DNA from: an uncultured Flavobacteriales bacterium
Lineage (GTDB): Bacteria; Bacteroidota; Bacteroidia; Flavobacteriales_C; GCA-002722245
Assembly (NCBI GenBank): GCA_963933885.1
Contig: CAWVWF010000001.1
Coordinates: forward strand, 3,638-67,637
Length of the DNA stretch: 64,000 nucleotides
Reading direction: 5' to 3'
Position 1 is the stretch's first letter. Every line of letters starts with the position of its first letter. Below, in pieces: positions 8,068-32,245 of this stretch. The position numbers and the translations under genes are program-made. The notes beneath the pieces are model-generated. The model was given only the letters and a program-made list of their open reading frames with translations, was not told the origin of the DNA and did no database searches.

Positions 8068-8296
8068 AGTTCTGTTTTTTAAGAATCGTTTTACTTTGGT
8101 AAGTAAAAGTGAAGTTTCCAAAATCATCAAATAGAAAAACATATCGATCCACACCAAATTTATTGATAGTGAAGATGTTAAACAGAACGAAAAATATTAA
8201 AAATGATATTTCAAGGAAGGGTGATTTATAGATTGAGTTCGTGTATTGTTGCGATATAAAACAGTATATTTTTAAGAGGAAAATCATCCTTAAGGC

Positions 8297-13474: not shown

Positions 13475-14377
13475 TTAGTCTGTTATTTCGTTTCTAATTG
13501 TTGAGATTTTTAACTTGATAGCTTCAAAAGCTTCTTTTGTAATCACCACTTCCAACTTCCCTCCTAATGTTGTTATTTTATTAACCGTATCCGTTTTAAC
13601 TTTTGTTTCATCATCATAATTTAATGCAACATTATTAAACAATACTTCAAGCTCTTCTAATTTTTTAATTCGTTCATCAAAGTCAGTTCCTTCAACAGCC
13701 TTTAACATGTTAATCAAATTTGTTAGTGCTGGTTTCTGTTCTGCGATTTTTTTCCAAATTGGCATCTCTTTACCTTCATCTAACTTTAAATTAACTGCGA
13801 TATAAAGTCCTTCAATCCAAGCACCAGTTAGAATTGCTTTAGAAACAATTGGTCGGTCATTTTCCTGTAAGTACAAATCTGTTTCCATATAGGTAGCAGC
13901 AATAATATCCATTAAGGAATCTTTATTACTCATGTTCCCTTCTAATTTCATTCTGATTTCTTCAGTGAAGACACCTTCGATATTTAATTCACTTGATAAA
14001 GCTTGAGCAGATCCCATAAACTTCATAGCATCTAAAGGATAATCAAACATGGATGTGAAACTTAAATCCGCGAAATAAACTCCTAAGTTTAAGGAACGTG
14101 TCATGTCAGTTACGTAGTCGTCAATCCCATCAGGATCATTCAAAATTTCTACGTCATAAATCGCATTCGTTTGAAAAAGAAGATCGGCCATTTCAACTGG
14201 AGATGGCAAAGTATAAACAACTTTTGCAGCTGTTTTTAATTCCTTAATCTGTTTAACAGTATAGGTGATATCTTCTTCTTCGAAAATATCATCATCTTGA
14301 TTTTGTGGGGTTGGTACTTTGTCGTCTCCACATGACATTAATGCTAAACCAGCAACGAAATATAAAACTTTACGCAT
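13475..14377 (-). CDS. lipoprotein with an acidic N-terminal linker, function unknown
   Basis: MRKVLYFVAGLALMSCGDD has a lipobox (LMSC). A D/E-rich segment follows the lipidated Cys. 300 aa. It is co-directional with the deacetylase upstream and the small secreted protein downstream. Confidence 0.6.
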   Translation of the reverse strand: MRKVLYFVAGLALMSCGDDKVPTPQNQDDDIFEEEDITYTVKQIKELKTAAKVVYTLPSPVEMADLLFQTNAIYDVEILNDPDGIDDYVTDMTRSLNLGVYFADLSFTSMFDYPLDAMKFMGSAQALSSELNIEGVFTEEIRMKLEGNMSNKDSLMDIIAATYMETDLYLQENDRPIVSKAILTGAWIEGLYIAVNLKLDEGKEMPIWKKIAEQKPALTNLINMLKAVEGTDFDERIKKLEELEVLFNNVALNYDDETKVKTDTVNKITTLGGKLEVVITKEAFEAIKLKISTIRNEITD

Positions 14378-14431: not shown

Positions 14432-15469
14432 TTAAGGTTTTAATTGGACTTTAATTTTTGTACTGTATGGAAGGCTATTAATTAACAGTACATTTTGTTT
14501 TTCGTCATATACATATTCCAAAATAACGTCTTGTTTTCCAACCAGAACAACGCTCTTTATTTCATCCTTTTTTATTCCAGAAACCACGATTGTAATTGGC
14601 TCGAAAAACTTAGATTCATCCAAAGTACATTTCAAATCAATCGCAATTGAATTGCTATCCTTCTCAAAAGACATTAAAGTGTTTGCTTTTTCTTTATGAT
14701 ATTGAATTGCTTTCTCGAAAGTAGTTATCCAAACATCAGCTCTTAATGATATAATACTTTTAAGATGTGCCTCCAGCATCGTTTCATGGATTGGTCCAAA
14801 CCACTTATCTGCAACAGAATCATTGAATATACTATGGTACATAAAAGTTACCATCCCACCTTGTTTCACAGCTTGAACAGCCATCCTTTTAATAGTTGAA
14901 GGTGTGTGGATATCCCTAGCCATGAATGTTTGAAGTTGAAAATAATCTGTTTTACCATAGGTTAAACTATAAGGCCAAGCCCTTCCATATCTTAAACCTG
15001 CTAATCTTGCAGCGATGTGATCTTTCTTTACAATTTTTAAAACTTCTGAATTGAAAGCACCATAAGGAAATGCAAATGTATTGGCTACTTTTGGGGCTAT
15101 ATTTTTTCTTAGAATTTCTTGAGCTTCGGTTACTTCTTTATATAATTTAACGGAATCAATTTCTGCTAAATTTGGATGTGTTTCTGTATGATTTCCAATT
15201 TCACAACCATGCTCAAATGCTAGCTTCATTTTAGCCCAGCTTCCTCCTAAATCTTTATTTTTAGTAGTAACGTAAAACGTTGCTGGAACTTTGTACTTGA
15301 TAAACATGGGTACGACAATCTCACCATGTCCTGGTGACCAATCATCGAATGTAAAAACGATAGCCGCTTTCTTTGCATTCTTCCAATTTGATAATTCCAC
15401 ATTGATTGAATCTTGTGAAATTCCGATCGTTGAAATCAACCCTAATAATATTGTAAATAGCTTTCTCAT
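14432..15469 (-). CDS. polysaccharide deacetylase family protein (NodB homology, CE4-like)
   Basis: Signal peptide. FTFDDW…HG (TFDD-type Asp motif) and HTETHP (His-His metal motif) are typical of CE4/NodB deacetylases. Confidence 0.7.
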   Translation of the reverse strand: MRKLFTILLGLISTIGISQDSINVELSNWKNAKKAAIVFTFDDWSPGHGEIVVPMFIKYKVPATFYVTTKNKDLGGSWAKMKLAFEHGCEIGNHTETHPNLAEIDSVKLYKEVTEAQEILRKNIAPKVANTFAFPYGAFNSEVLKIVKKDHIAARLAGLRYGRAWPYSLTYGKTDYFQLQTFMARDIHTPSTIKRMAVQAVKQGGMVTFMYHSIFNDSVADKWFGPIHETMLEAHLKSIISLRADVWITTFEKAIQYHKEKANTLMSFEKDSNSIAIDLKCTLDESKFFEPITIVVSGIKKDEIKSVVLVGKQDVILEYVYDEKQNVLLINSLPYSTKIKVQLKP

Positions 15470-16919: not shown

Positions 16920-19900
16920 CTACCTCAATACATTAACGTGACCCACCTTTTGTTTTCGTCTTGGTTTTCCATCTGGATGATTCATTGAGTAGTATATTTT
17001 ATATACATATGTATCTATCTGAACTTCTCTTCCCATGTACGTTCCATCCCAATCTACAAACATAGATTCAGACTCATAGATTTGTTGTCCCCATCTGTTA
17101 AAAATATACATGTGATAATCCGTTATGTTATGTCCTTTAGCATTAAACGAATCGTTAATTCCATCACCATTCGGGCTGAAAGTATTTGGTATATATAACG
17201 CGCTTGGACAAAATTCATTAAATGTAATACGATCAGTAATAAAACAATTTCCAACACTAATTTGAACTACATAAGTTCCTGCTGATTGAATCGTAATATC
17301 AGATGTTGAATCAGTTGTTCCCCACAAATAATCATAACTCTGATCTGTACCAGCACTAATATTAAAACCTCTATCTGTAAGCTCTTCAAAACAGAAGTAC
17401 TTATTATCTAACGAATGATCTATACCACTTGTAGGCAATGGAACTACATTAACATTAATGGTATCTGTTGAAGAACATAGCTCGTTGCTTACACTTATAA
17501 TATGCGTATTTGTTTGGTTTACATCAAATACTGTTTCAGTTTGACTATCATTCCATGTATAATTTAAGCCTGAAATTCCAGCATCGATAGTTCCTGTTTC
17601 ACCCTCACAAAGATTGATATCTGGTCCTAAATCCACAACTGGAATTGGAACAAAAATTACGTTAACAGTATCTTTTCCGACACAACCTTCTGGTGTTTCA
17701 ACATTGAGAATATAATCGTTAGATCCAGTCGCAGTTATTTGTGAAACCGTATCTGTAGTTGACCATAAGTACGATAGGTTTTGATCTCCCCCTATATCAC
17801 TTACATTAACTAATGTTCCATCACAAACTTTGATATCGGGACCCAAATCAGGATTAGGATTATCGTTTAAAATCACCTCAACAAAAGTTGAGTTTTTACA
17901 ACCTGTAGCAACATTTGTTACTTCCTGATCGAAGATACCTCCAGTAAATACTGTTATTTGAGCAGTTTGCTCAGCGGTACTCCAAACATAATCGAATTGG
18001 TTTCCTTTATCATTTCCTATGACAACAGAATCTCCATTACAAATCGCAGCCTTTGAAGGAGTTACTATTGGTAAAGGATGAACTTCTACTTCTACAATAG
18101 CATCTCCTTCACAACCTTTTCCATCGTCAACATGAACAATATACAATCCACTTGTATCAACGTTAATTACATCTGTTGTTTCATTTGTAGACCATGTGAA
18201 ATTGTAATTATCCACACTTTTATAATTTGGAATTAAATCTACATTCTCACCAATACACAAATCTATTTTCGGTGCGTTGGCAATTGTAACACTCAAGTTT
18301 TGTTCAATCGTAATTTCTGCAGAATCTCTTCCTACACATCCATAAGCATCTGTAATATCCACCCAAGTCCATTCTTTATATGCAGCAATATATGTACTGT
18401 ACTTACTCCTATCATGCCATTCATAAGTATATGGCCCATTTCCATTGTCGAATCCTGAAGCATCTAGCGTTGCCTTCATCCCTGGACACATTGCAACATC
18501 GAATATCACATCAGGTTTTGGAAGTGGAATTACAATTAATTCAACTGTATCTTGAGCAACACAACCATTTGAATCAGTTACTTCAACATCATAAATCCCA
18601 GGTCTTGTTGTATTATATGAATCCTTATCTGAATAATTAAACCATTCATATTTCGCATAAGTTCCTGGTGTAAAAGCTACGCTAGAAGCATTCTCACAAA
18701 TTGTTATATCCAGGCCTAAATCCGGAGTTGGTAGAGGGTTTACAACAAGTACAACAGTATCGCTTCCGGGACACCCCTGAGCATCGATAAAATCAACTGT
18801 GTATTCTCCTGCTTGATTTGTTTGAAAACTACTGATGGTATCTCCAGTATTCCAAATGTATGTTTCGAAACCTAATCCAGCATCAAAAATAACTTCTGAA
18901 TCACCTGCACATATTACTTGATCCTGCATGTTAACTAAAGGCATCTGATTTACTTTTAAGTACATTGTATCGTATCCTAAACAACCATTTGAATCTGTTA
19001 AAATCAGACTATAGTCGCCTTCATCATGGATTTGTATAGATGAAGTAGTAGAATCGTTACTCCATAAATAAGTTGCTTTTGTAAATCCGGTAGTCAATTG
19101 AACTGCTGGGTCCATTGAACAAATTTCTTCATCTGGTCCTATACTTACAATTGGATTAGGATTTACCACAAGTTCCACTGTTGTATCATTTACACAACCA
19201 TTAGAATCGGTTACTTCAATATGGTAAGAATTACCTGCGTTTGTAGATAAAAGCTGATCTACACTTAAACCATTTTGCCAGTTGTAAGAAAGGTAAACAC
19301 CAGCATCCAAAGTTACAGGACTATCGCCATCGCAAATTGTATCGTTTGGAACGTAAGGGATAGGTAGTAAATTTACAATCAACTCAAACGATGTATCGGC
19401 TTTACAACCATTACTATCCGTTACTTCGACTGTATAAACACCACCATCCTTACTGCTGAAAACCGAATCATTATTATTACCATTCCAATCGTAAATATCA
19501 TAATCTCCAACACTAAATTCTACTATTGAATCGCCTTCACAAATCGTATCGTTAGCAACATATGGAATTGGCAATACATTTACTATTAGTTCGAAACTTG
19601 TATCTGATATACATCCATTATCATCCATTACTTCAACGGTATAGACTCCAGAAGCATCTAATTGGATAGTTTGCGTTGTATCATTCGTGCTCCATAAGAA
19701 AGAAGTATAACTCCCAGCGTCGAAAACCACAGGTCCTCCTCCTTCACATATTGTATCATTTGATATAAAAGGAATCGGCTTTGGATTAACTACTAACTCA
19801 AAACTCGTATCCGATACACAACCGTTACTATCTGTTACTTCGATTGTATAGCGTCCTGCTGAATCAAGGTTAATAGTTTGTGTTGAATCTTGCGTACTCC

Positions 19901-22760
19901 AATTAAATAAATCATAATTTCCTGCATCAAAAGTCACAGCTAAATCGCCTTCACATATTGTATCATTTTCAACAAAAGGAATTGGATTTGGTCTGTTTAC
20001 TAAAATGAAAGAAGTATCATTCACACACCCATTACTATCTGTTACTTCGATGGAGTAATTACCAGCAGAGCTCGTACTGAACGTACTAGAATTTGATCCT
20101 CCGTTGTTCCAATTATAAACATCATAATTACCAGGATCGAATGTTACACTGCTATCACCATCACAAATTGCTTTACTATCTATAAATGGCTGAGGCAATG
20201 GGTTTACTACTAACTCAACTATTGTATCTCCTTCACAACCATTATCATCTATAACTTCAACTGAATAGATTCCGGCTGAATTTACAGTGATTGTTTGATC
20301 TGGTGAATTGTTAAAACTCCATGTATAAGATGCAAATATTCCAGCATCAAAAATTATTGATGGGTCTCCTTCGCAAATCGTATCGTTTGGTATAAAAGGA
20401 AGTGGTAATGTATCTACAAATAAAACAACAGAATCAGTATCCTTACAACCATACTGATCCGTTATTTCTACAATATATTCACCTGCCGAATCTTTAGTTA
20501 TTTGCTGATTTGTTTCTGATGTATTCCAAACATATAAATCCCATGTTCCTGCATCAAAAGTAACAGGAGCGTCGCCTTTACAAATCGTTTTATCCACTCC
20601 TAAGTCAACTACTGGTTTTGGGTTTACAATCAATGTTACAACTGTATCCTCAACACAACCATTGCTATCCGTTACTTCTACTTTATAATCACCTGCGATA
20701 GTTGTTTTTATTGAAGAACCTGTTCCGTTTTGATAATCCCAACTGTATGCATCGTATATTCCAACATCAAATGTTATTGCTGAATCGCCTTCACAAATCG
20801 TATCATTTTCGATATAAGGAACTGGGAGTTCATTTACTTTTAATAACACGGTATCACTTCCTTTACAACCTTTGATGTCTGTTACTTCTACGAGGTACTC
20901 TCCCTCAATATCAGTTGATATCGTTCGAGTTATTTCATTGTTATAATTCCATAAATAGGTATCCCAATTCCCTGCATCAAAAACTATAGAAGGATCATTT
21001 TTACATATAGATGTATCATTTCCTAAATCTGGTTTTGGTAATGGATTTACAACGATATAAATTGAATCTTTACAAGTACTACCTATCCCCGTTACAGTAT
21101 AAATCAACTTGTACTCTCCTTCTTTTGTAGATAGGTTAAGTGCATTAAAACTCGTGTCAGATTGTTCAACTAAAACAGCATCTACTCCACTCGTTGTTGG
21201 AATTGAATCAATAGACCAAACTCCTGGTCCATTCCCTAATAGTACTATTGGATCCAATGCTATCGAATCCACTCCAATACAAAGTTCAGGTTGAACATCA
21301 TCAAGTTCAACCTCACAGCTAACACACTCTTTTACTTCTATCCAAATCGTATCGTTTACATCACAAAACCTAAATTCTATCATATGAAGTCCTGCACCTG
21401 CATCACTTGGAACAAATAACCCTTTGATTTGCCCTGAGTCTCCTGCCTGTATTCCATTTCCAAAATAACCATGTGTTGCATCCGCTTGTCTGATTCCCGA
21501 TTCCGAATCTACATGACTACAAACCCATTCTGTATATAAATCAATTGGCGTTGTAATCGTATCACAAAAAGGTCCTACCTCTGTTATATCAGGTTCTTCT
21601 GCTGGTGGAATAAACATACTTGAAATTCCATTCGAGGATTTTATATTCATATCCGTTGTTCCTCCAGAAGCAGAATTAATTCGATACATTCCACTTGCTC
21701 CGGCACTATAAACATATCCATCTGCTCCTAATTCTAATCCTAAATGACTTCCATTAGGCATTGAAAAACTTTGTCGAGATCCTAAGATATCACTAGCGCT
21801 TGTATTAAAAGTTGAGACACCTTTAAGTATTTCCGAAATATATAAAGTTTGATTGTCTGCTCCAAATACTAAATCATATGGTATAAATCCAGTTGTAGGT
21901 GCGAAACTTTCACCATCTGTGATTTCCCCTGTTTTGTTATTAAAATTGTAAATCCTTAGGGTATTAGCCGCAACCCCTGTAGGCCATGCTTGGGGGAATG
22001 CTGATGCCATTTTAGTTCCATCCCAATTAAATGCTATTCCACCTCTCTCCCATTGTCCGGTAACACTAAAAGCTTCATTAGAAATTACAGCTGGTGTAAC
22101 AAATCCATCACAAGTTAAAAGAAAAGTGTGGAATTCGGTTGAACCAACCTTTAAGACTGTTACCCAAATATCAACTCCATTTTCATGGAAAGTAGCGGAA
22201 ATACCTTCTGCAACTTTGAAGGTTGTAAGTTGTTTTGAATATATGTGTTGTGCGTTTTCATCAAAAACACCAATGTTAAATCCATTGGCTCCACCAAGTG
22301 CATCATCAGTTGTTAGCGCATAATATTTAAATGGAGCTAATGGGTGTCTTACCATCATCACCCCTTGAGAAGCACTCCCGTATGAAGTAGCCCCTCCTTC
22401 ATTTCCTTCTTTTAATCCAGCATAGGTTTTTGTTCCTGTATTATCATAAACAGATAAACCATTTGTCATCAATATTAAGTTTCCTCCATCATCACTTGCT
22501 GAAGAAATTCCTTCATAACCTCCAATTACATTTGTTGTACTATTACCATAAGAGGTAGCAGTTTGTGTTGTGAAATTGTATACAAACGATTTACCTCCAA
22601 TACTAGGTGCGAGGAAAAAGTTATTATGCCCTGGCCATTCCCAAGGGTTTCTTGTAGTAGTAACACATGTTTGACGCTCTTGAGCGATTACTTCTGAAAA
22701 TGAAAGTAGAATTATAAATAATACTCGAAAATGAGTGCTTATACCCTTGATGAATCTCAT
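16920..22760 (-). CDS. giant surface adhesin-like T9SS cargo with an N-terminal ~450 aa beta-rich domain, ~16 tandem Cys-containing ~78 aa repeats, and a type-B (gliding-motility-associated) C-terminal domain
   Basis: 1946 aa. Signal peptide. The repeated unit is P-x-P-x-x-x-N-D-T-I-C-E-G-D-x-x-x-x-F-D-A-G-x-Y-x-x-Y-x-W…Y-x-V-E-V-T-D-x-N-G-C. The C-terminus FSPNGDGINDSF…IFNRWGQQIYE…WDGTY matches the CHU_C/type-B CTD. Confidence 0.85.
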   Translation of the reverse strand: MRFIKGISTHFRVLFIILLSFSEVIAQERQTCVTTTRNPWEWPGHNNFFLAPSIGGKSFVYNFTTQTATSYGNSTTNVIGGYEGISSASDDGGNLILMTNGLSVYDNTGTKTYAGLKEGNEGGATSYGSASQGVMMVRHPLAPFKYYALTTDDALGGANGFNIGVFDENAQHIYSKQLTTFKVAEGISATFHENGVDIWVTVLKVGSTEFHTFLLTCDGFVTPAVISNEAFSVTGQWERGGIAFNWDGTKMASAFPQAWPTGVAANTLRIYNFNNKTGEITDGESFAPTTGFIPYDLVFGADNQTLYISEILKGVSTFNTSASDILGSRQSFSMPNGSHLGLELGADGYVYSAGASGMYRINSASGGTTDMNIKSSNGISSMFIPPAEEPDITEVGPFCDTITTPIDLYTEWVCSHVDSESGIRQADATHGYFGNGIQAGDSGQIKGLFVPSDAGAGLHMIEFRFCDVNDTIWIEVKECVSCEVELDDVQPELCIGVDSIALDPIVLLGNGPGVWSIDSIPTTSGVDAVLVEQSDTSFNALNLSTKEGEYKLIYTVTGIGSTCKDSIYIVVNPLPKPDLGNDTSICKNDPSIVFDAGNWDTYLWNYNNEITRTISTDIEGEYLVEVTDIKGCKGSDTVLLKVNELPVPYIENDTICEGDSAITFDVGIYDAYSWDYQNGTGSSIKTTIAGDYKVEVTDSNGCVEDTVVTLIVNPKPVVDLGVDKTICKGDAPVTFDAGTWDLYVWNTSETNQQITKDSAGEYIVEITDQYGCKDTDSVVLFVDTLPLPFIPNDTICEGDPSIIFDAGIFASYTWSFNNSPDQTITVNSAGIYSVEVIDDNGCEGDTIVELVVNPLPQPFIDSKAICDGDSSVTFDPGNYDVYNWNNGGSNSSTFSTSSAGNYSIEVTDSNGCVNDTSFILVNRPNPIPFVENDTICEGDLAVTFDAGNYDLFNWSTQDSTQTINLDSAGRYTIEVTDSNGCVSDTSFELVVNPKPIPFISNDTICEGGGPVVFDAGSYTSFLWSTNDTTQTIQLDASGVYTVEVMDDNGCISDTSFELIVNVLPIPYVANDTICEGDSIVEFSVGDYDIYDWNGNNNDSVFSSKDGGVYTVEVTDSNGCKADTSFELIVNLLPIPYVPNDTICDGDSPVTLDAGVYLSYNWQNGLSVDQLLSTNAGNSYHIEVTDSNGCVNDTTVELVVNPNPIVSIGPDEEICSMDPAVQLTTGFTKATYLWSNDSTTSSIQIHDEGDYSLILTDSNGCLGYDTMYLKVNQMPLVNMQDQVICAGDSEVIFDAGLGFETYIWNTGDTISSFQTNQAGEYTVDFIDAQGCPGSDTVVLVVNPLPTPDLGLDITICENASSVAFTPGTYAKYEWFNYSDKDSYNTTRPGIYDVEVTDSNGCVAQDTVELIVIPLPKPDVIFDVAMCPGMKATLDASGFDNGNGPYTYEWHDRSKYSTYIAAYKEWTWVDITDAYGCVGRDSAEITIEQNLSVTIANAPKIDLCIGENVDLIPNYKSVDNYNFTWSTNETTDVINVDTSGLYIVHVDDGKGCEGDAIVEVEVHPLPIVTPSKAAICNGDSVVIGNDKGNQFDYVWSTAEQTAQITVFTGGIFDQEVTNVATGCKNSTFVEVILNDNPNPDLGPDIKVCDGTLVNVSDIGGDQNLSYLWSTTDTVSQITATGSNDYILNVETPEGCVGKDTVNVIFVPIPVVDLGPDINLCEGETGTIDAGISGLNYTWNDSQTETVFDVNQTNTHIISVSNELCSSTDTINVNVVPLPTSGIDHSLDNKYFCFEELTDRGFNISAGTDQSYDYLWGTTDSTSDITIQSAGTYVVQISVGNCFITDRITFNEFCPSALYIPNTFSPNGDGINDSFNAKGHNITDYHMYIFNRWGQQIYESESMFVDWDGTYMGREVQIDTYVYKIYYSMNHPDGKPRRKQKVGHVNVLR

Positions 22761-23208
22761 AACCTATTTTTTGAATGAAAAAGGATTTAGACTTTCTAAA
22801 TCCTATAACCAATCGTGAAGCAAGATTTTGATACTGTTCCCGATTACTAATGTAACAGTTAAGAGAAAGCTAAACATCCGTATTATCCCTAGAATCATTT
22901 ACAAAACAAGCAGTTACCAAATTAATCAAGGTTTTTGCATAAAATGTATACTTTGAAAACAAGTAGTTTTCGAGCGTAAATAGGGCTTTGACGCGTTTAG
23001 GTGAAATTTCCATTTTTTTATTTTTAATGTGTAACTAAACTGTTATTTCAACAAATAGCAATACACCTTCTTTACTATCCAATAGCTTGACATTTCATGT
23101 AAAACAATAGTCATTTGTGTAAAGGATTTTGAACAAGAAAAAGTCTTTCATATGTTTATTAGGAGCCGATTTCATCACACTATTCACGTATTTAAAACCA
23201 AACTACTT

Positions 23209-24663
23209 ATGAGACCAAATAATTTGAAACACCTGTTATTAAAGAGCATTTTATTCCTATTTGTATTAGGCGTAAACGCTGTTAGTTATTTACCAAGTGA
23301 TCCTAATATTCAATATCATGGAAGATGGAACAGTGCAGACCCAAGTGAATACCGAACAGAATGGTCATCCACTTATTTTAAAGTAAGGTTTACTGGAAGT
23401 TCAATCGAGGTAAAAATTACGAGCTCTTCAGTATTATACTATGAATATCAACTTGATGGAGGACCATGGGTAAAAACAACTTCTCCTGGAGTAATTGCAG
23501 CTTCAGGATCTGGAGAGCATTCTTTAAAATTTGTAAGACTTAATGCAGGAAACCATGGCTACACTTTATTTCAAGGACTAGAAGTAACTGGAGGTGTTTT
23601 GTTAGACCCAGGGCAAAGAAGGTGCTTACAAATGGAGTTTGTAGGGAATTCTATTACAACAGGATGGGGTAATGATGGCGGACAAGGTGGTGGCGCTGAT
23701 GTTCAAAATGGAAGATTAGCTTGGGGACCAGTATTGGCTGAAAAGTTTAATGCCGAATGGAGAGTTGAAGCCCATAGTGGACAAGGAATGCATAACAACT
23801 TATATGAATACGGACAACAAGACGCTCCAGGGAAATATACAATGGCTGATGAATGGGAGATGATGTATGAAATGAAACATGGTGGAGATGAATACACTAC
23901 AGTTTGGCCTTTCACAGATGGATACCAACCAGATGTTTTCTTTTGTTCATTAGGAACAAATGATTTTGCTCAAAATTCTGCATATCCAACTTGTACAGAA
24001 TTTAATGGGAGATACAATGAATACTTAGATTTAGTAAGAGGTTATTATCCAGATGCAACGATCATTTTATTTGGAACTAATTTACCAACTTGGGGAGCGG
24101 CATCAGTTGCTTCTTATGATTCTTGTAATAGATGTTTAGCGGAATTAGTTGACTATAGAAACAATGTAAGAAACGATGCAAACATCTACTTTGCAAATCC
24201 AAAACCAGGGAATTTAGATGCCAACTTATGGGTTGATTACAACTTGTATTTACCAGATAACACGCATCCAAATGGTGAAGGTCATCAAATAATCGCTACG
24301 AAAATGAAAGCGTTTATGGATGCTATCCCAGCAATAAAAGATAAACTAGATCAGACTACTAGTGGCTGTATTACAAGCATTAAAGAGATGGGTAATATCA
24401 ATCAACTTAAAGTATATCCAAATCCAATGACAGATGATGGTGTTTTGGAAATGGAGCTTACAAATCCTTCTGATGTGAACTTTGAAATTTACTCGATAGA
24501 AGGTAGATTAATTGACTCCGCTGCACATAATATGTTAGCGCGTGGAAAGCATTCTTTTCAATTAAATATGCTCTTCAAGAAGACTAATTTAACTGGCGGA
24601 AGCTACTTGATCAAAGTAATATCAGGAAGGTCAACATCAACTATTATTTCAATTTTAAAATAA
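23209..24663 (+). CDS. SGNH/GDSL-family hydrolase (carbohydrate esterase-like) with an N-terminal beta-sandwich (CBM-like) domain and a T9SS type-A CTD
   Basis: Block I FVGNSITTGWG (Ser nucleophile). Block III SLGTNDF. Block V DNTHPNGEGH (Asp/His). C-terminus KVYPNPMTDDGVLEM…GSYLIKV sorting domain. The track start 23152 precedes the signal peptide, so I used the ATG at 23209 (MRPNNLKHLLLKSILFLFVLG). Confidence 0.8.
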   Translation: MRPNNLKHLLLKSILFLFVLGVNAVSYLPSDPNIQYHGRWNSADPSEYRTEWSSTYFKVRFTGSSIEVKITSSSVLYYEYQLDGGPWVKTTSPGVIAASGSGEHSLKFVRLNAGNHGYTLFQGLEVTGGVLLDPGQRRCLQMEFVGNSITTGWGNDGGQGGGADVQNGRLAWGPVLAEKFNAEWRVEAHSGQGMHNNLYEYGQQDAPGKYTMADEWEMMYEMKHGGDEYTTVWPFTDGYQPDVFFCSLGTNDFAQNSAYPTCTEFNGRYNEYLDLVRGYYPDATIILFGTNLPTWGAASVASYDSCNRCLAELVDYRNNVRNDANIYFANPKPGNLDANLWVDYNLYLPDNTHPNGEGHQIIATKMKAFMDAIPAIKDKLDQTTSGCITSIKEMGNINQLKVYPNPMTDDGVLEMELTNPSDVNFEIYSIEGRLIDSAAHNMLARGKHSFQLNMLFKKTNLTGGSYLIKVISGRSTSTIISILK

Positions 24664-24731
24664 ATTATTACCCTTTTAAATGGGAATGAAAACCAGAACA
24701 AGGTCTGCCCCCTTGCTCATAAACTACTATT

Positions 24732-27700
24732 ATGTTTAAAAAGGAACTTACATCTTTAATGTTAATTGTATTTTTTACAATTGTATGCCAGCTTAAGAGC
24801 TTGTCGCAGGGTATATCTCCATTTACTTTATCGTTAGATTTTAATGTAGAACCGATCGATAATTCGTTTTATGGAAACTTAATCGTTAATGCTAATGGTG
24901 CTACCATTCCTAATGGTTTTACCTTAACATTAAGATGGCCTTCCTTAAAGGATTTCATAATGAATCAACCTGCCTTTACTGAAAATGGAACTGGGCAGTG
25001 TGATACGAAAACAATTACTTTTGACAGCTGGATGATTAAATCCACGGGCATTAATGTAAGTGCAAGTGGACACTACAACACCCCTTATTTATTGCCGCCT
25101 TATGCAATTGACAATAATGGAGACACCGTTTTGGTTGTGCTATCTGATCCCAAGTATTTACCCCAAGCATATAATCAAAAACCAAAAGAATTCCATTTTA
25201 AAAGTGAGTGCTTTATTCCGTCCCCAGATAAATTGTGCCTAGGTGAAGCACAGTTTAGGGAATGGAATGAAGTATGGGATGTAAGAGTTCCCGAAAATAG
25301 AATTAGTTGGGCAATCGCGTCCGCACATTCCCAACGCTTGTTTAATAACATGATTGGTGCTGAAGTTACTTCCTTAAATTACGTAATGGCTCAAGCCATG
25401 ATTGAAGGAAGAATGGCATGTGATCAAGGTGCAATATTCGATCAAAATGATAATAACCCTGGAGGTTATTGGAGTATTTCTGAACCTGCTGGGTGTATGC
25501 AAATTGTAACAACTGGCTGGGAACAACTAAAACAATTCTACCCATCACTATACGACGCAAATGGATTACAGTATAACGATTTTATTTCAGGAAAAAACTT
25601 TGTAACTGCAGCGCTGTCAAAAGCAATGTTTGACATGACTACCTTTTCTTATTTCGAAAAGAAACTATGTTCTAATCCGATTGATTTCATGTTGGAATCA
25701 GCAGATCCATATTTTACTGAAGAATTTTTAGCTATTGCTTATCATGATGGGAATGAAGGTGCTTGGAGTTCATTAGAACATATTTTCACAACCAACAGAA
25801 CTACTGCTGTTAATGATCCCAACTTAGCATCATTAATTATGTCGTCCGGACTATCTAAGGGTTACGGTCCTGAATATGCTGAGAGAATGCGAAATAATCT
25901 AATCCAACTTGAAAACAACTTTAGTGTTGATGGAGGTGCTGGGTTAATTTCAGGCTCGGCACAAATAAATTGGAAAGGAGGAAAAGTAGGACCTCCAGCA
26001 GATTATGAATATCATGGATGCTACAATGAACCAGTTTCTTGGGCAGATATGGAAGCTTATATCGATGATGCCCACCGATTGTTTTGGACTGGGGATATTG
26101 TAGATATCAAAGCACGTGTAAGAACTGAATTTGATAGAAGAGCTTCAGGTGGAAGTGTAATGTATGAGGATTTAGGATCTGTAATCGACACCATGGTTAT
26201 GGCATTTCCAGCTTATAGTACTGATGAAGGTTTAGGAACCGATTTCACACAACAATTAAAAGCATGTGGTTCTCCTGCTGTTGTGATGAGTAGTTGTGAT
26301 GAAATTTGTCCTGGTGAAACTGGTGAATTATGGATTCATTGTATGGGTGTTCCACCATTTACATATAGCATTTTAGCGCCTGATGGAAACATTATTACTA
26401 GAACAACAGCACTTACAGAGGTAACTGATGTTGTTTTAGTAAAAGAGCCTGGCGTGTATAAAATATTAGATTTTAACGATGCCAATGGAACGGTATTTAT
26501 GAATTGTCATAACTCCTCTGCTGAAATAAAAAATGCAGGAGATGCAAAAGTAGCATGGAATAAAGATCGTGTAGATGGAAATGGTTGTTCGAATGGAAAT
26601 CTTGAATTAGATATTGAAGGGAATGGACCTTGGTTAATCACCTATACAAAAGACGGTGGTAATGAAATCGATTTGGTCATTCCACTAAATGCAACAATGC
26701 CTTTTTCGGTGCCAAATGAAAGTCCTGCAACCGGGACTCAGTACATTTTAACACATATGGTTGCAGGAGGATGTGACTCAGATCTTGATGATACGATCAA
26801 TTTCTGTAGTGATTGTGTTAAACCACAATTGGAATTATTAACCACTGATACTGCAGTTTGTAATGGAGATACTGTAGCTGTTCAATTTAAGTTTATTGGA
26901 AATGCAGATTATAGCTTATTCTATCATTTCGATGGAAATCAATTCAATAATTCTGGAATATCTACTGATGACTTTACAATTCCAATAACCTCTAGTGGGG
27001 TACTAATTATCGACTCTCTAATCGATGCAACTTGTAAGAATGATACTTTAACCAATAAGCTAGAAATTACGGTTAATCCTATTCCTGATTTTAGTTTAGG
27101 AAAAGACACTACAATATGTTCTGGCCCAATCACCTTTAGTACAAACACATCAGGAGCAAACTCTTACGAATGGAATAATGCTTCAACCGATCCAACTTTA
27201 ACTGTTAATTCAAGTGGTGATTATTGGGTTATTGTTACTGAAAATAATTGTTCAGATACAGATTCAATCACTCTAGATATTGGTGGAGAATTACCAATTG
27301 ATTTAGGTTTGGATACTACGCTTTGTTTGATAGATGCACCTTTAATTTTAACTGTTGGAAGTTTTGATGTTGTTGAATGGAATGGAGTTTCGGGTGGTGT
27401 AAATTATGATGTTATAACTACATCAACAATTAATGTTCACGTGGTTGATATTGATGGTTGTGAAGGTTGGGACACTGTTGAGGTTGTTCTTAATTCAATG
27501 CCAATTGTAGCTTTAAGAAGCGATACTTCCTTATGTCCATTTTCAGCTCCGTTAACCTTAAATGCAAAGAATACTGGAGCAACCTATTTATGGAATTTAG
27601 ATGCGCTAACTAGTCAAACTATTGATGTAAATAAAAGTGGAATATATAAAGTTAAAGTAACGGAAAATGGATGTTCTACAGAAGATTCTGTTAGTGTAAC

Positions 27701-30425
27701 AATTTTGGATACGATAGATATAGATCTGGGGCCGGACACAACTTTTTGCTCGGATTTAGGAAATTATGAGATTACTATTGATCCAAGTTTTAAATCTTAC
27801 AGATGGAGTAATAATGACACAACCCAATCGATTTCTATCGGCACTTCTAGCACTATTGAAGTTGAAGTTGAAAATTCATTTGGTTGCGTTGGAAAGGATA
27901 CAGTCGTAGTAACGATAATCCCTACTCCATCTGTTGATTTAGGTAAAGACATTAGTATATGCCCTAACTCTTCTCCTGTTACTTTTGACGCTAAAAATAT
28001 TGGAGCGGACTTTTTATGGAACAGTGGAGAAACATCTCAAACAATATTAAAAGGAAGTTTAGAAGATGGCGAATATTCAGTGATCGTAACTAAGGATGGA
28101 TGCCATGGATATGATACCGTTAACTTACAAGTATCTACAGAATTAGCAGTTGATTTAGGTGATGATATTGAGGTTTGTATAGATACATTACTTGATGCTG
28201 GTTTTGGTATAGGATATAACTTTGAATGGAGCGGAAACCCATCATCGATAAATCAAACTTACTTAGCTACAGCTGGTGAAGTAACTGTGATTGTATCAGA
28301 TACTTCAGGATGTAAAGGAACAGATACAATTAATATTATTGAAGTAAATCCATTATCAATCGATCTAGGAGTTGACAGGTCTATTTGTTTTGGAGATACT
28401 GCTGAAGTGTTTTCTATGATTTCAAACAGGACCGACATTAATATTATCAAATGGAATGACGCATCAACTGGATATTCTCTTACAGCGAACACGAGTGGAG
28501 AATACTGGTTAGAGGTTGATAGTTCAGGATGTATAGCCAAGGACACAGTAAATTTAACTGTTCATGATCTTGAAAAAATTAATTTGGGAGACGACACCAC
28601 TTTCTGTGAAGGGAATATTCCAACATTTACAATGGATGCTGGTAAATTTGTATCCTATCAATGGAAGGAATTAACCAATTTGGATTTATTAGGTACTAAC
28701 CAGACTCAGATTGCTAGTAACGTTGGGGTTTATGAAGTAATGATTATAGATTCTAATGGGTGCGAAGCTTTAGATACATTGGCTGTTTTAGAAGAACTAG
28801 CTACTCAATTTTCACTTGGAGACGACACAACAATTTGTCCTGGAGGAAGTGCTATCATATCAATTCCTTTGAACATAACAGGTGGAAGTTGGCAATGGGT
28901 TAATGATGGATCAAACGGAAGTAAATATACAGTTAGCAATCAAACAGATGGTAGTACTGAAAGTGTAATACTTGAATATAAAAATGCATTTAACTGTATA
29001 ACTTATGATTCTGTAGATGTGAAAATCACGAATACATTAGTGATTTCGGGGTTAAAGGATACTACAATTTGTGAGGGAGAAGATGTTGAGATAGGAAGTG
29101 GTTATCCTCTTTCGGGGTATATTTTTGATTGGCAAGATGGATCTTCTAATAATAACTTTATCGTTACCAATGCCAATAGTTCAAACTCAGGATTGATAAC
29201 AGTTAATATTATAAGTAATGAAGGTTGTTCTGGAAATGCATCATTGAATCTAATTGTAAATAACAATCCAATACCTAACTTGGCAGACAGTACTAGTTGT
29301 GTTGGGGAAACTATAATATTAGATCATGGGATTTTAAATTCAAATTCAATATGGATTCCAACAAATGATACAACTCAAACTATAGAAATAGCTTCTTCTG
29401 GAACTTACTCAGTTACTGTTACAGATCCTAACGGGTGTATGGGGTATGCTAGCTCTAATTTAATGTTTAACGCTTCTCCTATCGTTAATTTAGGTAAAGA
29501 TCAAACTTTGTGTGAAGGAGATTCTTTCTTGTTGAATACAGGCTTTAAAACGAATGATTTTCACCATCAATGGAACCAGTCAAACACATCATCTGATGAA
29601 TTAATAACGATAGTTAACACAGGATCTTATGGTGTAATTGTAACAGATAATTTAAGTGGTTGTTCAGCTGGTGACACTATCAATTTCAATTTTGATGTTA
29701 CACCAAATTTAGAATTAGGAAATGACACCAATATCTGCGAAGGGGATATTTTCACTTTATATGCAACCGAAATAAATCCAAACTATATTTATGATTGGAC
29801 ACCAAGTGGCTATAATTCGGAAATTGATATTTCATCAAGCGGAATATATTCATTAACAGTTTCAAATGGTAATTGTTCTATCACGGATGATAAATTAGTA
29901 ACAGTTATACCTAAACCAATTAGTAGTTTGATAAACGATACTGTGCTTTGTTTTGAAGATTTACCAAATGGATTAATGCTAGACCCAGGAAGAATCGGAA
30001 GTAGTTATTTATGGAGTACTAGTGAGAATACACAAGTAATAATTGTTAATGATCCTGGAGTTTACTTAGTTGAAATCACTAACTCAACTGGCTGTACAAT
30101 TCAAGATCATGTTGATATTAAAGAATATTGCATAAGTTCAATTTGGGTTCCCAATGCTTTCACTCCTCAAGGTGATGGAACGAATGACACTTGGGAGATT
30201 AAAGGGAGTGGAATAGTTAATTATTCAGTAATAGTTTTTAATAGATGGGGATCTCTTATTTGGGAATCAAATGATATGAATGATTCATGGGATGGGACAC
30301 ACATGGATACTGGTAATGATGTTCAAATTGAGGTATATGCTTATAAAATTTCTTACAGCTACTTTGATATTAATGGAAAAATGAAATCACAAGAAAAACT
30401 GGGGACCGTAACCATAATAAGGTAA
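24732..30425 (+). CDS. second giant adhesin-like T9SS cargo with an N-terminal ~540 aa domain of unknown function, tandem ~75-80 aa Cys-containing repeats, and a type-B C-terminal domain
   Basis: 1897 aa. Signal peptide. The repeats share the D-T-x-I-C-x-G-…-W-N/S-…-Y-x-V-x-V-T-D-x-N-G-C pattern. The C-terminus FTPQGDGTNDTWEI…VFNRWGSLIWES…WDGTH matches the type-B CTD. Confidence 0.85.
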   Translation: MFKKELTSLMLIVFFTIVCQLKSLSQGISPFTLSLDFNVEPIDNSFYGNLIVNANGATIPNGFTLTLRWPSLKDFIMNQPAFTENGTGQCDTKTITFDSWMIKSTGINVSASGHYNTPYLLPPYAIDNNGDTVLVVLSDPKYLPQAYNQKPKEFHFKSECFIPSPDKLCLGEAQFREWNEVWDVRVPENRISWAIASAHSQRLFNNMIGAEVTSLNYVMAQAMIEGRMACDQGAIFDQNDNNPGGYWSISEPAGCMQIVTTGWEQLKQFYPSLYDANGLQYNDFISGKNFVTAALSKAMFDMTTFSYFEKKLCSNPIDFMLESADPYFTEEFLAIAYHDGNEGAWSSLEHIFTTNRTTAVNDPNLASLIMSSGLSKGYGPEYAERMRNNLIQLENNFSVDGGAGLISGSAQINWKGGKVGPPADYEYHGCYNEPVSWADMEAYIDDAHRLFWTGDIVDIKARVRTEFDRRASGGSVMYEDLGSVIDTMVMAFPAYSTDEGLGTDFTQQLKACGSPAVVMSSCDEICPGETGELWIHCMGVPPFTYSILAPDGNIITRTTALTEVTDVVLVKEPGVYKILDFNDANGTVFMNCHNSSAEIKNAGDAKVAWNKDRVDGNGCSNGNLELDIEGNGPWLITYTKDGGNEIDLVIPLNATMPFSVPNESPATGTQYILTHMVAGGCDSDLDDTINFCSDCVKPQLELLTTDTAVCNGDTVAVQFKFIGNADYSLFYHFDGNQFNNSGISTDDFTIPITSSGVLIIDSLIDATCKNDTLTNKLEITVNPIPDFSLGKDTTICSGPITFSTNTSGANSYEWNNASTDPTLTVNSSGDYWVIVTENNCSDTDSITLDIGGELPIDLGLDTTLCLIDAPLILTVGSFDVVEWNGVSGGVNYDVITTSTINVHVVDIDGCEGWDTVEVVLNSMPIVALRSDTSLCPFSAPLTLNAKNTGATYLWNLDALTSQTIDVNKSGIYKVKVTENGCSTEDSVSVTILDTIDIDLGPDTTFCSDLGNYEITIDPSFKSYRWSNNDTTQSISIGTSSTIEVEVENSFGCVGKDTVVVTIIPTPSVDLGKDISICPNSSPVTFDAKNIGADFLWNSGETSQTILKGSLEDGEYSVIVTKDGCHGYDTVNLQVSTELAVDLGDDIEVCIDTLLDAGFGIGYNFEWSGNPSSINQTYLATAGEVTVIVSDTSGCKGTDTINIIEVNPLSIDLGVDRSICFGDTAEVFSMISNRTDINIIKWNDASTGYSLTANTSGEYWLEVDSSGCIAKDTVNLTVHDLEKINLGDDTTFCEGNIPTFTMDAGKFVSYQWKELTNLDLLGTNQTQIASNVGVYEVMIIDSNGCEALDTLAVLEELATQFSLGDDTTICPGGSAIISIPLNITGGSWQWVNDGSNGSKYTVSNQTDGSTESVILEYKNAFNCITYDSVDVKITNTLVISGLKDTTICEGEDVEIGSGYPLSGYIFDWQDGSSNNNFIVTNANSSNSGLITVNIISNEGCSGNASLNLIVNNNPIPNLADSTSCVGETIILDHGILNSNSIWIPTNDTTQTIEIASSGTYSVTVTDPNGCMGYASSNLMFNASPIVNLGKDQTLCEGDSFLLNTGFKTNDFHHQWNQSNTSSDELITIVNTGSYGVIVTDNLSGCSAGDTINFNFDVTPNLELGNDTNICEGDIFTLYATEINPNYIYDWTPSGYNSEIDISSSGIYSLTVSNGNCSITDDKLVTVIPKPISSLINDTVLCFEDLPNGLMLDPGRIGSSYLWSTSENTQVIIVNDPGVYLVEITNSTGCTIQDHVDIKEYCISSIWVPNAFTPQGDGTNDTWEIKGSGIVNYSVIVFNRWGSLIWESNDMNDSWDGTHMDTGNDVQIEVYAYKISYSYFDINGKMKSQEKLGTVTIIR

Positions 30426-30483
30426 TAGAACTTCCTTTTAACATCTACATTACAAACTATAAGCTTGCTCAAAAAAAAGACAT

Positions 30484-30509
30484 AAAAAAAGGGGGCATAA
30501 AGCCCCCTT
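30484..30509 (-). terminator. bidirectional terminator between the convergent giant adhesin and expansin-like genes
   Basis: aaaaaaa gggggc ataaa gccccc ttc. A GC-rich 6 bp stem in an AT-rich context. An A-run sits on one side and a T-containing tail on the other. Confidence 0.5.
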
Positions 30510-30529
30510 CTAATATTATAAAGTATTGA

Positions 30530-32245
30530 TTACTTCTTTACAAAAGTAACAGCACCTGTAGTAGTAGCGTTTGTAAATTTAGCAACATAAATTCCTGAAG
30601 CTAAGTTAGAAACATCAAAAGTAATTTGAGCACTAGCTCCAGATAAGTTTTTACTTCCAACAACTTGACCGTTAATATTAACGATTTGGATAGTGTTTAC
30701 ATCCTTAAGTCCAGAAAAAGTAATATTTGTATTAGCTGGGTTAGGATATGTAGTAACGAAATCTAAAGAGTTAATTAAATCTCCTGTAGAAGTAATTGTA
30801 CATCCAGGGAAATTAGCACCTCCATCGATTTTAGCATCTCCATTGTTATCCATGTCATTTACAGTAAGAACAACTTCGTTACCATAGATATCAGTGATTT
30901 TGAATGTTTTGTCGTCTCCTCCGAAACTACCTTTAACCCATCCATTATCAACTCCTAATGCCATAGCTTCATAAGAAGATCCACCGTCATTAGAAATTTC
31001 TACTGAAGCAATTCTGTTTGTATGGTTACCAATTACAACTTTAGCATACCAAGCATGAGAACCTTGAGTAATTACATGTAAATTGTTTTGCCAAGGACAA
31101 GTAACTTCTTGCCAGTCAAAATCACCAATTCCAGCAGCAACGTGATCAATATCAACAACAGCTTGGAAAGCAGCGATACTTAAATCGATATCTCCAAACT
31201 TTGTGTTTGTTCCAACGATAATTGAACCATCACCAGCTCTATCCCAACAATCAGGACATTCATCAACGATTTGAATAATTGCAGTTCCTTCTAATCCTGT
31301 TGCTTCAACACACATACCACAGTAAGGTGTTCCACCATTTTGAATTAATAAACCTTTATCCAATGCACCATATTTAGTACCTAAGATATCATCTCTTTCG
31401 AAAGAACATTTAACAACACCATTTGGTTGAACATCTAAGTTATTATACCAAGTACCATGACCATGATCATCAACAGAACCAGTACAAGCAGTTCCAGTAC
31501 CACCCCCGTTACCACATGGTGAACATGATGCTCCACCACAATCAATTCCAGTCTCATCTTGGTTTTGTATTCCATCAGAACACGTTGCACCACCAGTACC
31601 AGCACCAGTAGATTCAGCTCCAATTTCAACTCTCTTTATACCGAAAGTTACTCCATCCGATGCTGATCTCCAACCAAATGCTCTAATGTCATTCTTCCCA
31701 GTAAAATCAATCCATTCTTGCTCATTTCCTGCAACAGCAGCAAGATCAATAACGAATCTTTCATCTGCATTTGCAGTTGTAAATGTTAATGTTGGAATTA
31801 CTCCACCAATATGTGTAGAACTACCTAATCCCCACGCTGTACCTCCTGCACCTACAAAAAATTCAAGCTTTGCTCCAATTTCGCTTGATCTTGCAATAAT
31901 TGTAACTTCTGTATGATTAGTAAGGTCTATTCTATCAGCATCAAATGCAGTAGTACAACCTGATCCATTTATGTAAGGAATAGGATACCATGCAGCTCCA
32001 GCCCATTGAGGAATACTAGCTACAGAAGTCATTGTACAATAACCATCTCCAAGTAAGTGATCTCCTGCTTCGAATGAAGTTCCGTTATCCATGATAGCAT
32101 GAGTTCCTGGGAAACCATAAGATAAATAACAATTTGAAAGTGGATCTGTGTTATCGTAGATCAAACCTGTACCAGCACTATTTAACTGCGCACTTGCAGT
32201 TAATGTAGCTGTTCCAAGTATAAAAATTAGTAATTTTTTAATCAT
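30530..32245 (-). CDS. expansin-like protein (EXLX: DPBB D1 + CBM63-like D2) with an N-terminal extra domain, a Gly/Thr/Cys-rich linker and a T9SS type-A CTD
   Basis: The D1 motifs ALDKG…NGG…CGMCVE…IIQIVDECPDC…GDIDLSIAAFQAV parallel plant expansin and GH45 motifs (GACGYG…CGACFE…HFDLSQPAF). The D2 motifs GSHAWYAKVVIGNHT…NGWV…KTFKITDIYGNEVV parallel Bacillus EXLX1 D2. The C-terminus TYPNPANTNITF…GIYVAKF sorting domain is present. Confidence 0.7.
   Translation of the reverse strand: MIKKLLIFILGTATLTASAQLNSAGTGLIYDNTDPLSNCYLSYGFPGTHAIMDNGTSFEAGDHLLGDGYCTMTSVASIPQWAGAAWYPIPYINGSGCTTAFDADRIDLTNHTEVTIIARSSEIGAKLEFFVGAGGTAWGLGSSTHIGGVIPTLTFTTANADERFVIDLAAVAGNEQEWIDFTGKNDIRAFGWRSASDGVTFGIKRVEIGAESTGAGTGGATCSDGIQNQDETGIDCGGASCSPCGNGGGTGTACTGSVDDHGHGTWYNNLDVQPNGVVKCSFERDDILGTKYGALDKGLLIQNGGTPYCGMCVEATGLEGTAIIQIVDECPDCWDRAGDGSIIVGTNTKFGDIDLSIAAFQAVVDIDHVAAGIGDFDWQEVTCPWQNNLHVITQGSHAWYAKVVIGNHTNRIASVEISNDGGSSYEAMALGVDNGWVKGSFGGDDKTFKITDIYGNEVVLTVNDMDNNGDAKIDGGANFPGCTITSTGDLINSLDFVTTYPNPANTNITFSGLKDVNTIQIVNINGQVVGSKNLSGASAQITFDVSNLASGIYVAKFTNATTTGAVTFVKK

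Follow-up and report, generated by a model that had tools for sequence, protein, structure and literature searches.

The window examined here is a stretch of 64,000 nucleotides (nt), positions 3,638 to 67,637 of the forward strand of contig CAWVWF010000001.1 in GenBank assembly GCA_963933885.1, from an uncultured bacterium of the Flavobacteriales; coordinates below count from its first letter. Its two largest open reading frames (ORFs), here called genes A (1946 amino acids, aa) and B (1897 aa), face away from each other, 2 kb apart in inverted orientation, with a 503-aa esterase gene between them, as the ORF map confirms. A preliminary description made from the sequence had taken this pair for adhesins exported through a type IX secretion system (T9SS), on account of their type-B C-terminal domains (CTDs), and had proposed that their repeats recombine. 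On balance we consider it probable that the locus instead encodes a T9SS-displayed set of polysaccharide-degrading proteins, probably directed at chitin and centered on a surface-tethered hydrolase akin to the archaeal chitinase ChiD. The source is an uncultured marine Flavobacteriales population, as the 90%-identity cluster of the ArgG protein from the same contig includes proteins from Tara Oceans and from 'Flavobacteriales bacterium' metagenome-assembled genomes (MAGs). The features of the two genes and of the gene between them, including immunoglobulin-like (Ig-like) repeats and a module resembling family 2 carbohydrate-binding modules (CBM2), are as follows.

16920..22760, minus strand: gene A, 1946 aa, predicted T9SS type-B cargo with signal peptide, beta-propeller head, Ig-like stalk and type-B CTD (from the ORF, its translation and Pfam/NCBIfam matches)
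21591..22682, minus strand: gene A head, aa 27-390, seven-bladed YVTN/lactonase-like beta-propeller
17205..21029, minus strand: gene A stalk, aa 578-1852, 18 tandem repeats of ~70 aa, two-Cys and Ig-like (Pfam Ig_7-like)
16923..17204, minus strand: gene A type-B CTD, aa 1853-1946 (PF13585 4.6e-15, TIGR04131 9.2e-15)
23152..24663, plus strand: CE2-type SGNH carbohydrate esterase with type-A CTD, 503 aa (CE2_N 23314-23607, SGNH 23638-24300, CTD 24412-24660)
24732..30425, plus strand: gene B, 1897 aa, predicted T9SS type-B cargo with signal peptide, CBM2-like module, ChiD-like catalytic domain, Ig-like stalk and type-B CTD
24810..25196, plus strand: gene B CBM2-like module, aa 27-155, divergent beta-sandwich
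25197..26273, plus strand: gene B predicted catalytic domain, aa 156-514, homologous to the archaeal chitinase of PDB entry 5xsv
25404-25406 and 25704-25706, plus strand: codons of E225 and D325, invariant residues of the predicted catalytic domain
26274..27092, plus strand: gene B pre-stalk, aa 515-787, ~3-4 degenerate Cys-containing Ig-like domains
27093..30128, plus strand: gene B stalk, aa 788-1799, 14 tandem two-Cys Ig-like repeats of 68-78 aa
30129..30422, plus strand: gene B type-B CTD, aa 1800-1897 (PF13585 7.8e-17, TIGR04131 1.8e-12)

The heads of the two proteins are unrelated, as had been noted at the outset, and it is that of B which points to an enzyme. It carries no Pfam or NCBIfam domain, and a single-sequence search of the PDB with it returned nothing at E <= 10; nor did six members of its family match any Pfam model at that threshold. 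A word-indexed search with the B head found five clusters. When the family profile was run exhaustively with HMMER against 1.84 billion proteins, it returned 166 representatives, with a conserved core corresponding to about aa 156-514 of B. Searched against the PDB, a shallow profile of six sequences matched 5xsv ('Chitinase') at E = 0.17, exactly on the GCFQI and AYHEG motifs, and a profile of 24 sequences (alignment A5) matched the same entry at E = 3.1e-23, with positions 16-333 of the 340-position profile aligned to residues 159-478 of the chain. Two acidic residues stand out: across 114 members of the family, E225 and D325 show 99% conservation each, and the window protein has both of them, in alignment with a Glu and an Asp of 5xsv. 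The first of these is the Glu of the EGRMACD segment, which the preliminary description had rightly singled out as possibly enzymatic, and its counterpart in 5xsv is the Glu of ...AAKENW.... The 114 members likewise conserve the motif G-x-F/M-Q and, in A-Y-H/N-x-G, the Gly; both are intact in B, where the motifs read IEGRMxCD, GCMQI and AYHDG; distant members of the family read KES...GCD, DGCFQIE and AYNRG. We regard E225 and D325 as the candidate catalytic acid pair of a presumably active head.

The chitinase of entry 5xsv comes from an archaeon and includes chitin-binding domains (PMC11713874). The B domain resembles it over its full length, with the two acidic residues and the G-x-F-Q and Y-N/H-x-G motifs all in register, and a beta-sandwich carbohydrate-binding module (CBM), in B a predicted one, precedes the catalytic domain in both proteins. 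The two differ in that the homology of B is seen by family profiles only, that motif I of B reads E-G and not E-N or E-S, that the host of B is a marine bacterium and the source of 5xsv a hyperthermophilic archaeon, and that the enzyme unit of B is fused to an Ig-like stalk of ~1300 aa and a T9SS type-B CTD. We take 5xsv, together with 5xsw and 5xsx, to be Tc-ChiD of Thermococcus chitonophagus. That enzyme is reportedly the one treated by Horiuchi et al. in AEM 82:3554 (2016) and by Nishitani et al. in Glycobiology (2018), and is said to be structurally novel. Reviews that mention Tc-ChiD give no catalytic detail, and one groups it with family 18 of the glycoside hydrolases (GH18). To our knowledge only one member of the family, an archaeal enzyme, has been characterized.

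At the level of the family, the module preceding this domain (aa 27-155) appears CBM2-like. Its profile (alignment A6) matched the CBM2a of Cex (PDB 1exg) at 9.3e-9, a chitodextrinase (8ose) at 1.7e-5 and the chitin-binding domain of ChiC (2rtt) at 2e-4, and the Pfam model CBM_2 (PF00553) was matched by 6 of 22 family members, at best with 1.7e-18.

The combination of head, stalk and CTD seen in B recurs in other genomes. A scan of 185,579 species genomes returned 11 B-type loci, all in uncultured MAGs of the Flavobacteriales, Cytophagaceae or Saprospiraceae. Eight of these (L003 and L005-L011) encode full-length proteins of 1488-1803 aa in which a long repeat stalk joins a B-type head to a type-B CTD; L012 holds a ninth such protein with its start missing, L004 a 766-aa form, and L002 is cut by the end of its contig. 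Forms of the head of ~770 aa that end in a type-A CTD also exist (P0002, P0004). Across the family, type-B CTDs were assigned to ~40 of 152 representatives (median length 1749 aa) and type-A CTDs to ~42 of 152 (median 818 aa), by local hidden Markov models (HMMs) trained on Pfam-verified CTDs. In L005, L008, L009 and L011 the B-type gene has as its immediate neighbor a gene for a GH18 protein with a type-A CTD; these GH18 proteins are orthologous, 58-61% identical between loci. In L005 and L010 an A-type propeller gene lies beside the B-type gene. Among the loci compared, the CE2 esterase is specific to the version in the window.

Several other features of these loci were observed in passing. 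A protein of 308-341 aa with a type-A CTD and weak Ig_Rha78A_N and FN3-like matches, 31-45% identical between loci, is encoded in L005 (7200-8138), L008 (8651-9673) and L009 (8691-9614); its gene is the next one upstream of the B-type gene in L008 and L009 and lies one place farther upstream in L005, where the GH18 gene stands between, and the window lacks it. The GH18 gene beside the B-type gene of L008 (15321-16905) is split into three ORFs, and an A-type gene on another contig of the same MAG (L014, 10001-15589) is split into ORFs of 247 and 1606 aa; these splits are either frameshifts marking pseudogenes or MAG assembly errors. In a further Flavobacteriales MAG, a GH20 chitobiase/beta-hexosaminidase (L013, 1-370; CHB_HEX and Glyco_hydro_20) is encoded upstream of an A-type propeller gene, at a distance of ~10 kb and with unrelated genes between.

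Export and display of both proteins are predicted from their ends. By eye, the translations begin with Sec signal peptides, MRFIKGISTHFRVLFIILLSFSEVIAQ in A and MFKKELTSLMLIVFFTIVCQLKSLSQ in B. The type-B CTDs reported in the preliminary description stand at the extreme C-terminus of each, with scores of 55.9 (A) and 61.6 bits (B) for CHU_C PF13585 (cut-off 27) and 54.6 and 47.2 bits for TIGR04131, 'T9SS type B sorting domain' (cut-off 35), so that both are members by the curated cut-offs of either model. A third gene with a type-B CTD, which had also been reported, lies at 54554..56977 on the minus strand; its CTD is 24-25% identical to either of the other two, and those of A and B are 47% identical to each other.

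The window holds no PorP_SprF match in any ORF of at least 120 aa, as had been stated, and no PorP/SprF gene is found among the immediate neighbors of the B-type genes in the 11 other loci. The absence of such a partner had been presented as a departure from the classical sprB-sprF arrangement, but it has a precedent. [quoted passage not shown] Type-B membership of A and B is thus compatible with the lack of an adjacent partner, and the likeness of their CTDs makes a shared shuttle plausible. Like the F. johnsoniae substrates, A and B are very large, rich in repeats and end in a TIGR04131/CHU_C domain; unlike those of the SprB type, they lack SprB-repeat domains (none among the Pfam matches of either protein) and differ in their heads, which are a putative glycoside-hydrolase unit in B and a propeller in A. 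A second comparison, by description, is with CHU_3220 of Cytophaga hutchinsonii, a large protein with a CHU_C type-B CTD that is required for cellulose binding and for the degradation of crystalline cellulose (PMC11611037). B would likewise be a giant type-B-CTD surface protein of a gliding-type Bacteroidota member tied to the degradation of an insoluble polysaccharide, its role being predicted; whereas CHU_3220 is not described with an identified catalytic domain (PMC11611037), B has an identifiable CBM2-like module and a glycoside hydrolase-like domain in its head.

Between head and CTD, both proteins consist of Ig-like repeats. The long arrays of Cys-bearing repeats reported earlier are real, but their period is not 75-80 aa; it is about 68-78 aa, mostly 69-72, and two Cys and one Trp are conserved in each unit. 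An HMM built from the units of A alone matched 14 of 14 B units (E 2e-5 to 4e-18), one built from B alone matched 18 of 18 A units, and neither matched any of 40 shuffled sequences. The arrays are therefore far beyond chance and homologous between the two genes. The Pfam family nearest to the units is Ig_7 (PF19081, 'Ig-like domain CHU_C associated'), with whole-protein scores of 32.3 bits for A and 27.3 for B against a threshold of 27.3, B being borderline; as no single stretch reaches that threshold, the repeats of A and B form a divergent subfamily. Upstream of the canonical array each protein has a few degenerate Ig-like domains. In B these occupy aa 515-787, where Ig-like_POM152 matches aa 525-584 and 704-771 and the repeat HMM gives a weak match at aa 703-786; they are also present in the short homologs of ~770 aa (alignment with P0002, P0004 and P0005).

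The head of A has no Pfam or NCBIfam domain and no identifiable catalytic signature, a single-sequence PDB search with it gave nothing at E <= 10, and its homologs form 11 clusters among 5.8 billion proteins. An AlphaFold2 (AF2) model is confident, with seven blades, a mean per-residue confidence (pLDDT) of 82.5 and a predicted template-modeling score (pTM) of 0.86, which bears out the earlier impression of a beta-propeller. Polar residues invariant in the propeller family (alignment A2; window positions ~21900..22400, minus strand) comprise R-H-P-L-x-P, D127, E159, T164, H166, N168, D171 and W173, numbered on the trimmed query, to which 26 is added for protein numbering. This cluster suggests a defined ligand-binding or active site, and the propeller is probably a ligand-binding or accessory head. 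Among the closest known systems is the archaeal S-layer protein of PDB entry 1l0q, which has tandem YVTN beta-propeller and PKD domains.

The gene between A and B combines CE2_N (PF17996, 1.3e-12; 48.2 bits, cut-off 27.9) and GDSL/SGNH (PF13472, 1.8e-16; 61.6 bits, cut-off 32.9) domains with the blocks GNS (165), GTND (268) and DNTH (369), in keeping with its earlier designation as an SGNH esterase; it also ends in a type-A CTD that the preliminary description did not mention (PF18962 1.6e-6, TIGR04183 2e-7). Its best named match is an acetylxylan/glucomannan esterase, and assignment as an AxeC2 equivalog was rejected (47.9 bits against a cut-off of 500). The true start is probably Met20, at nt 23209, since only from there does the sequence resemble a signal peptide (MRPNNLKHLLLKSILFLFVLGVNAVS). 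Two further genes flank the pair.

30530..32245, minus strand: expansin-like neighbor, convergent with B, 571 aa, EXLX1-like domain at aa ~305-480, type-A CTD
14432..15469, minus strand: CE4 polysaccharide deacetylase (PF01522 3e-24), 1.5 kb beyond the 3' end of gene A

The expansin-like protein matches NF041144 at 1e-20 (below the cut-off of that model), the EXLX1 structure 7wvr at 1.3e-7 and PF18962 at 3.1e-13, and is probably an accessory protein that loosens or binds polysaccharide. The CE4 deacetylase possibly belongs to the same functional neighborhood as A and B.

Taken together, these features suggest that gene B encodes a surface-tethered enzyme in which a CBM2-like module and a ChiD-family catalytic domain would be carried on the far end of a stalk made up of ~17-18 Ig-like domains, with probably one stabilizing disulfide in each. 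The type-B CTD would direct export by the T9SS and hand-over to an unlinked PorP/SprF-type shuttle or anchor, as for the F. johnsoniae orphans, and the head would most likely bind and cleave chitin or a related beta-1,4-GlcNAc polymer at a distance from the outer membrane. Indirect pointers to chitin are the GH18 neighbor in four related loci and the CBM2-like module. Gene A would use a stalk and a CTD of the kinds found in B to display its seven-bladed propeller. The CE2 esterase and the expansin-like protein, with their type-A CTDs, may act as co-secreted helpers, and the repeats would serve as structural spacers. The original picture of a pair with type-B CTDs, long repeat stalks and different heads is thus retained, but the label of adhesin appears too narrow for B, given its putative CBM and glycoside-hydrolase head.

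Several observations weigh against this interpretation. The assignment of the B head derives from family profiles, the window sequence itself having no direct PDB or Pfam match, and motif I reads E-G in B and E-S in most distant members. The AF2 model of the B head, built on an alignment of six sequences, has a pLDDT of 46 and is unusable; a Foldseek search with this poor model is uninformative, finding nothing at E <= 0.001 and, as its top match, the CBM region of a Clostridium perfringens chitinase (E = 0.27). The window copy of the CBM2-like module has no direct Pfam match and is 11-37% identical to other members. The window locus has no GH18 gene, genes A and B are linked at only three B-type loci (the window, L005 and L010), and in the MAG of L008 the A-type gene lies on a separate contig (L014). 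The fold of the A propeller gives no readable function, and the CE2, expansin-like and CE4 neighbors would fit plant or algal glycans, or peptidoglycan, equally well.

Three other explanations merit consideration, of which the proposal that A and B are adhesins whose near-identical repeats recombine, generating variation in repeat number and antigenicity, is in our judgment very improbable. The two genes do share one repeat family, 2 kb apart and inverted; the most similar units (A04-A08) are adjacent, which suggests past local duplication; and B, like the CE2 esterase and the expansin-like protein, is alone in its cluster at 90% identity, whereas the cluster of ArgG from the same contig has 74 members. 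At the DNA level, however, the repeats are not near-identical within or between genes. Unit identity averages 33% aa and 48% nt within A, with a maximum of 67% aa and 70% nt (A06/A07), reaches at most 41% aa and 56% nt within B, and between A and B averages 27% aa and 44% nt with a maximum of 46% aa and 56% nt. The longest exact words shared are 24 nt (A-A), 13 nt (B-B) and 16 nt (A-B), a DNA repeat search found copies 60-79% identical, and Tandem Repeats Finder detected no ~210-nt array at the locus. RecA-type recombination needs ~20-30 nt of perfect identity within a highly similar region, and falls steeply with divergence. Repeats so diverged are a poor substrate for recombination, which is the very outcome that the preliminary description had named as refuting its proposal. 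The sole other copy of the locus on record, an ENA contig with 1 mismatch over 25.7 kb, is otherwise identical, and as gene B is alone in its 90%-identity cluster, no length variants are on record. A recombination-prone, contingency-type repeat locus is not supported; the units are old, having duplicated long ago. For giant repeat-rich surface genes in general, likeness of repeats at the protein level is insufficient by itself for calling recombination hotspots.

An unlikely but more substantial alternative is that the B head is a lysozyme-like cleaver of peptidoglycan and the locus a contact-dependent bacteriolytic or algicidal weapon; there the SGNH esterase would take off O-acetyl groups, deacetylation would fall to the CE4 enzyme, and wall binding to the expansin-like protein. 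Peptidoglycan de-O- and de-N-acetylases are known from the SGNH and CE4 families, two expansin-type PDB matches of the neighboring protein (9ms5 and 9ms4) are named 'peptidoglycan-binding', and the motif order of the B family, E-S/E-G ... G-x-F/M-Q ... A-Y-N/H-x-G, presumably resembles that of GH23/SLT lysozyme-like enzymes. Membership in GH23/SLT was nevertheless rejected, as no such chain occurs among the PDB profile matches and no Pfam SLT match was found for six family members, both at E <= 10. Further, the sole solved or characterized homolog is named a chitinase, the recurrent neighbor is a GH18 protein, the module of B has its matches among chitin- and cellulose-binding modules and not LysM, SPOR or peptidoglycan-binding domains, and the esterase is nearest to an acetylxylan/glucomannan esterase. 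It is less probable still that A and B are non-enzymatic gliding adhesins like SprB, catalysis having been lost from a B head that now serves as a carbohydrate-binding tip. Type-B CTDs are typical of SprB-like adhesins, those of the F. johnsoniae orphans go to the gliding machinery (PMC12618676), the window contains an ORF resembling the C-terminal part of GldM (described below), and the A head lacks a catalytic signature; yet B keeps the invariant Glu and Asp as well as intact G-x-F/M-Q and Y-H/N-x-G motifs, no SprB-repeat match is present, and the short versions of the head with type-A CTDs (P0002 and P0004) look like ordinary secreted enzymes.

A T9SS-displayed, probably chitin-directed set thus remains the interpretation we favor, and it admits one extension that we put forward as a rather speculative idea: B-type proteins might be enzyme-tipped filaments of the gliding track, in which a ChiD-like chitinase and CBM on a SprB-like stalk are propelled along the cell surface, with A as a co-travelling partner in substrate capture. 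If so, the cell would sweep a tethered hydrolase over chitin particles, a mobile form of surface display of a glycoside hydrolase. Giant repeat proteins with type-B CTDs, orphan type-B substrates and large type-B proteins of polysaccharide degradation such as CHU_3220 (PMC11611037) are already known. Our literature searches found no report of the ChiD-type catalytic family in bacteria or as T9SS cargo, and no paper naming both T. chitonophagus and type IX secretion. The present comparison identifies this family, for which there is no Pfam model, as a recurrent T9SS cargo in uncultured Bacteroidota, with about a quarter of its representatives on an Ig-like stalk of ~1300 residues with a type-B CTD. 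Marine Flavobacteriales are major degraders of particulate polysaccharides, among the largest pools of which is chitin. If the B head is active, then surveys of chitinolytic potential based on GH18 and GH19 overlook such genes, and the architecture of B would plainly illustrate how the T9SS can display an enzyme at long reach.

The wider genomic setting adds some detail. In relatives whose ArgG is at least 90% identical (L016-L019), the order argG-argC-argD-DUF2196 is kept and is followed by a gene for an HrpB helicase, not by the cargo block (window 16920..32245). The block may be a strain-variable region; because the relatives without it differ on the other flank too, the comparison allows no conclusion on an insertion between the arg genes. 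In the intergenic region between the divergent genes, a scan for sigma-70 promoters and terminators, which does not cover Bacteroidota promoters, stayed at background level, and an Rfam scan of the window returned 0 families. Two ORFs on the minus strand, 13475..14377 (300 aa) and 45005..46378 (457 aa), have no Pfam match at E <= 0.001, and the shorter also has no NCBIfam match at E <= 1.

The window as a whole contains at least nine T9SS cargo genes, distributed as follows.

3314..5341, 5542..8157, 9515..12850, 23152..24663, 30530..32245 and 58232..60313: cargo genes with type-A CTDs
16920..22760, 24732..30425 and 54554..56977: cargo genes with type-B CTDs

They include a leucine-rich repeat protein, an M43 peptidase with a GEVED domain, a protein with a lamin-tail domain, and a sortilin/BNR protein resembling 'F510_1955 glycosylhydrolase' with Ig_7 domains. 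At 2543..3184 on the plus strand, a stand-alone ORF of 213 aa matches only the C-terminal (fourth) domain of GldM/PorM (PF12080 2e-13; TIGR03517 positions 329-517 of 524), and it adjoins a SulP sulfate permease gene and is not within a gldKLMN operon. Unconnected with the findings on A and B, a CBM9-like protein of 253 aa (49463..50224, plus strand; PF06452 1.2e-14) is encoded beside a family 2 glycosyltransferase (GT2) and an alpha/beta hydrolase.

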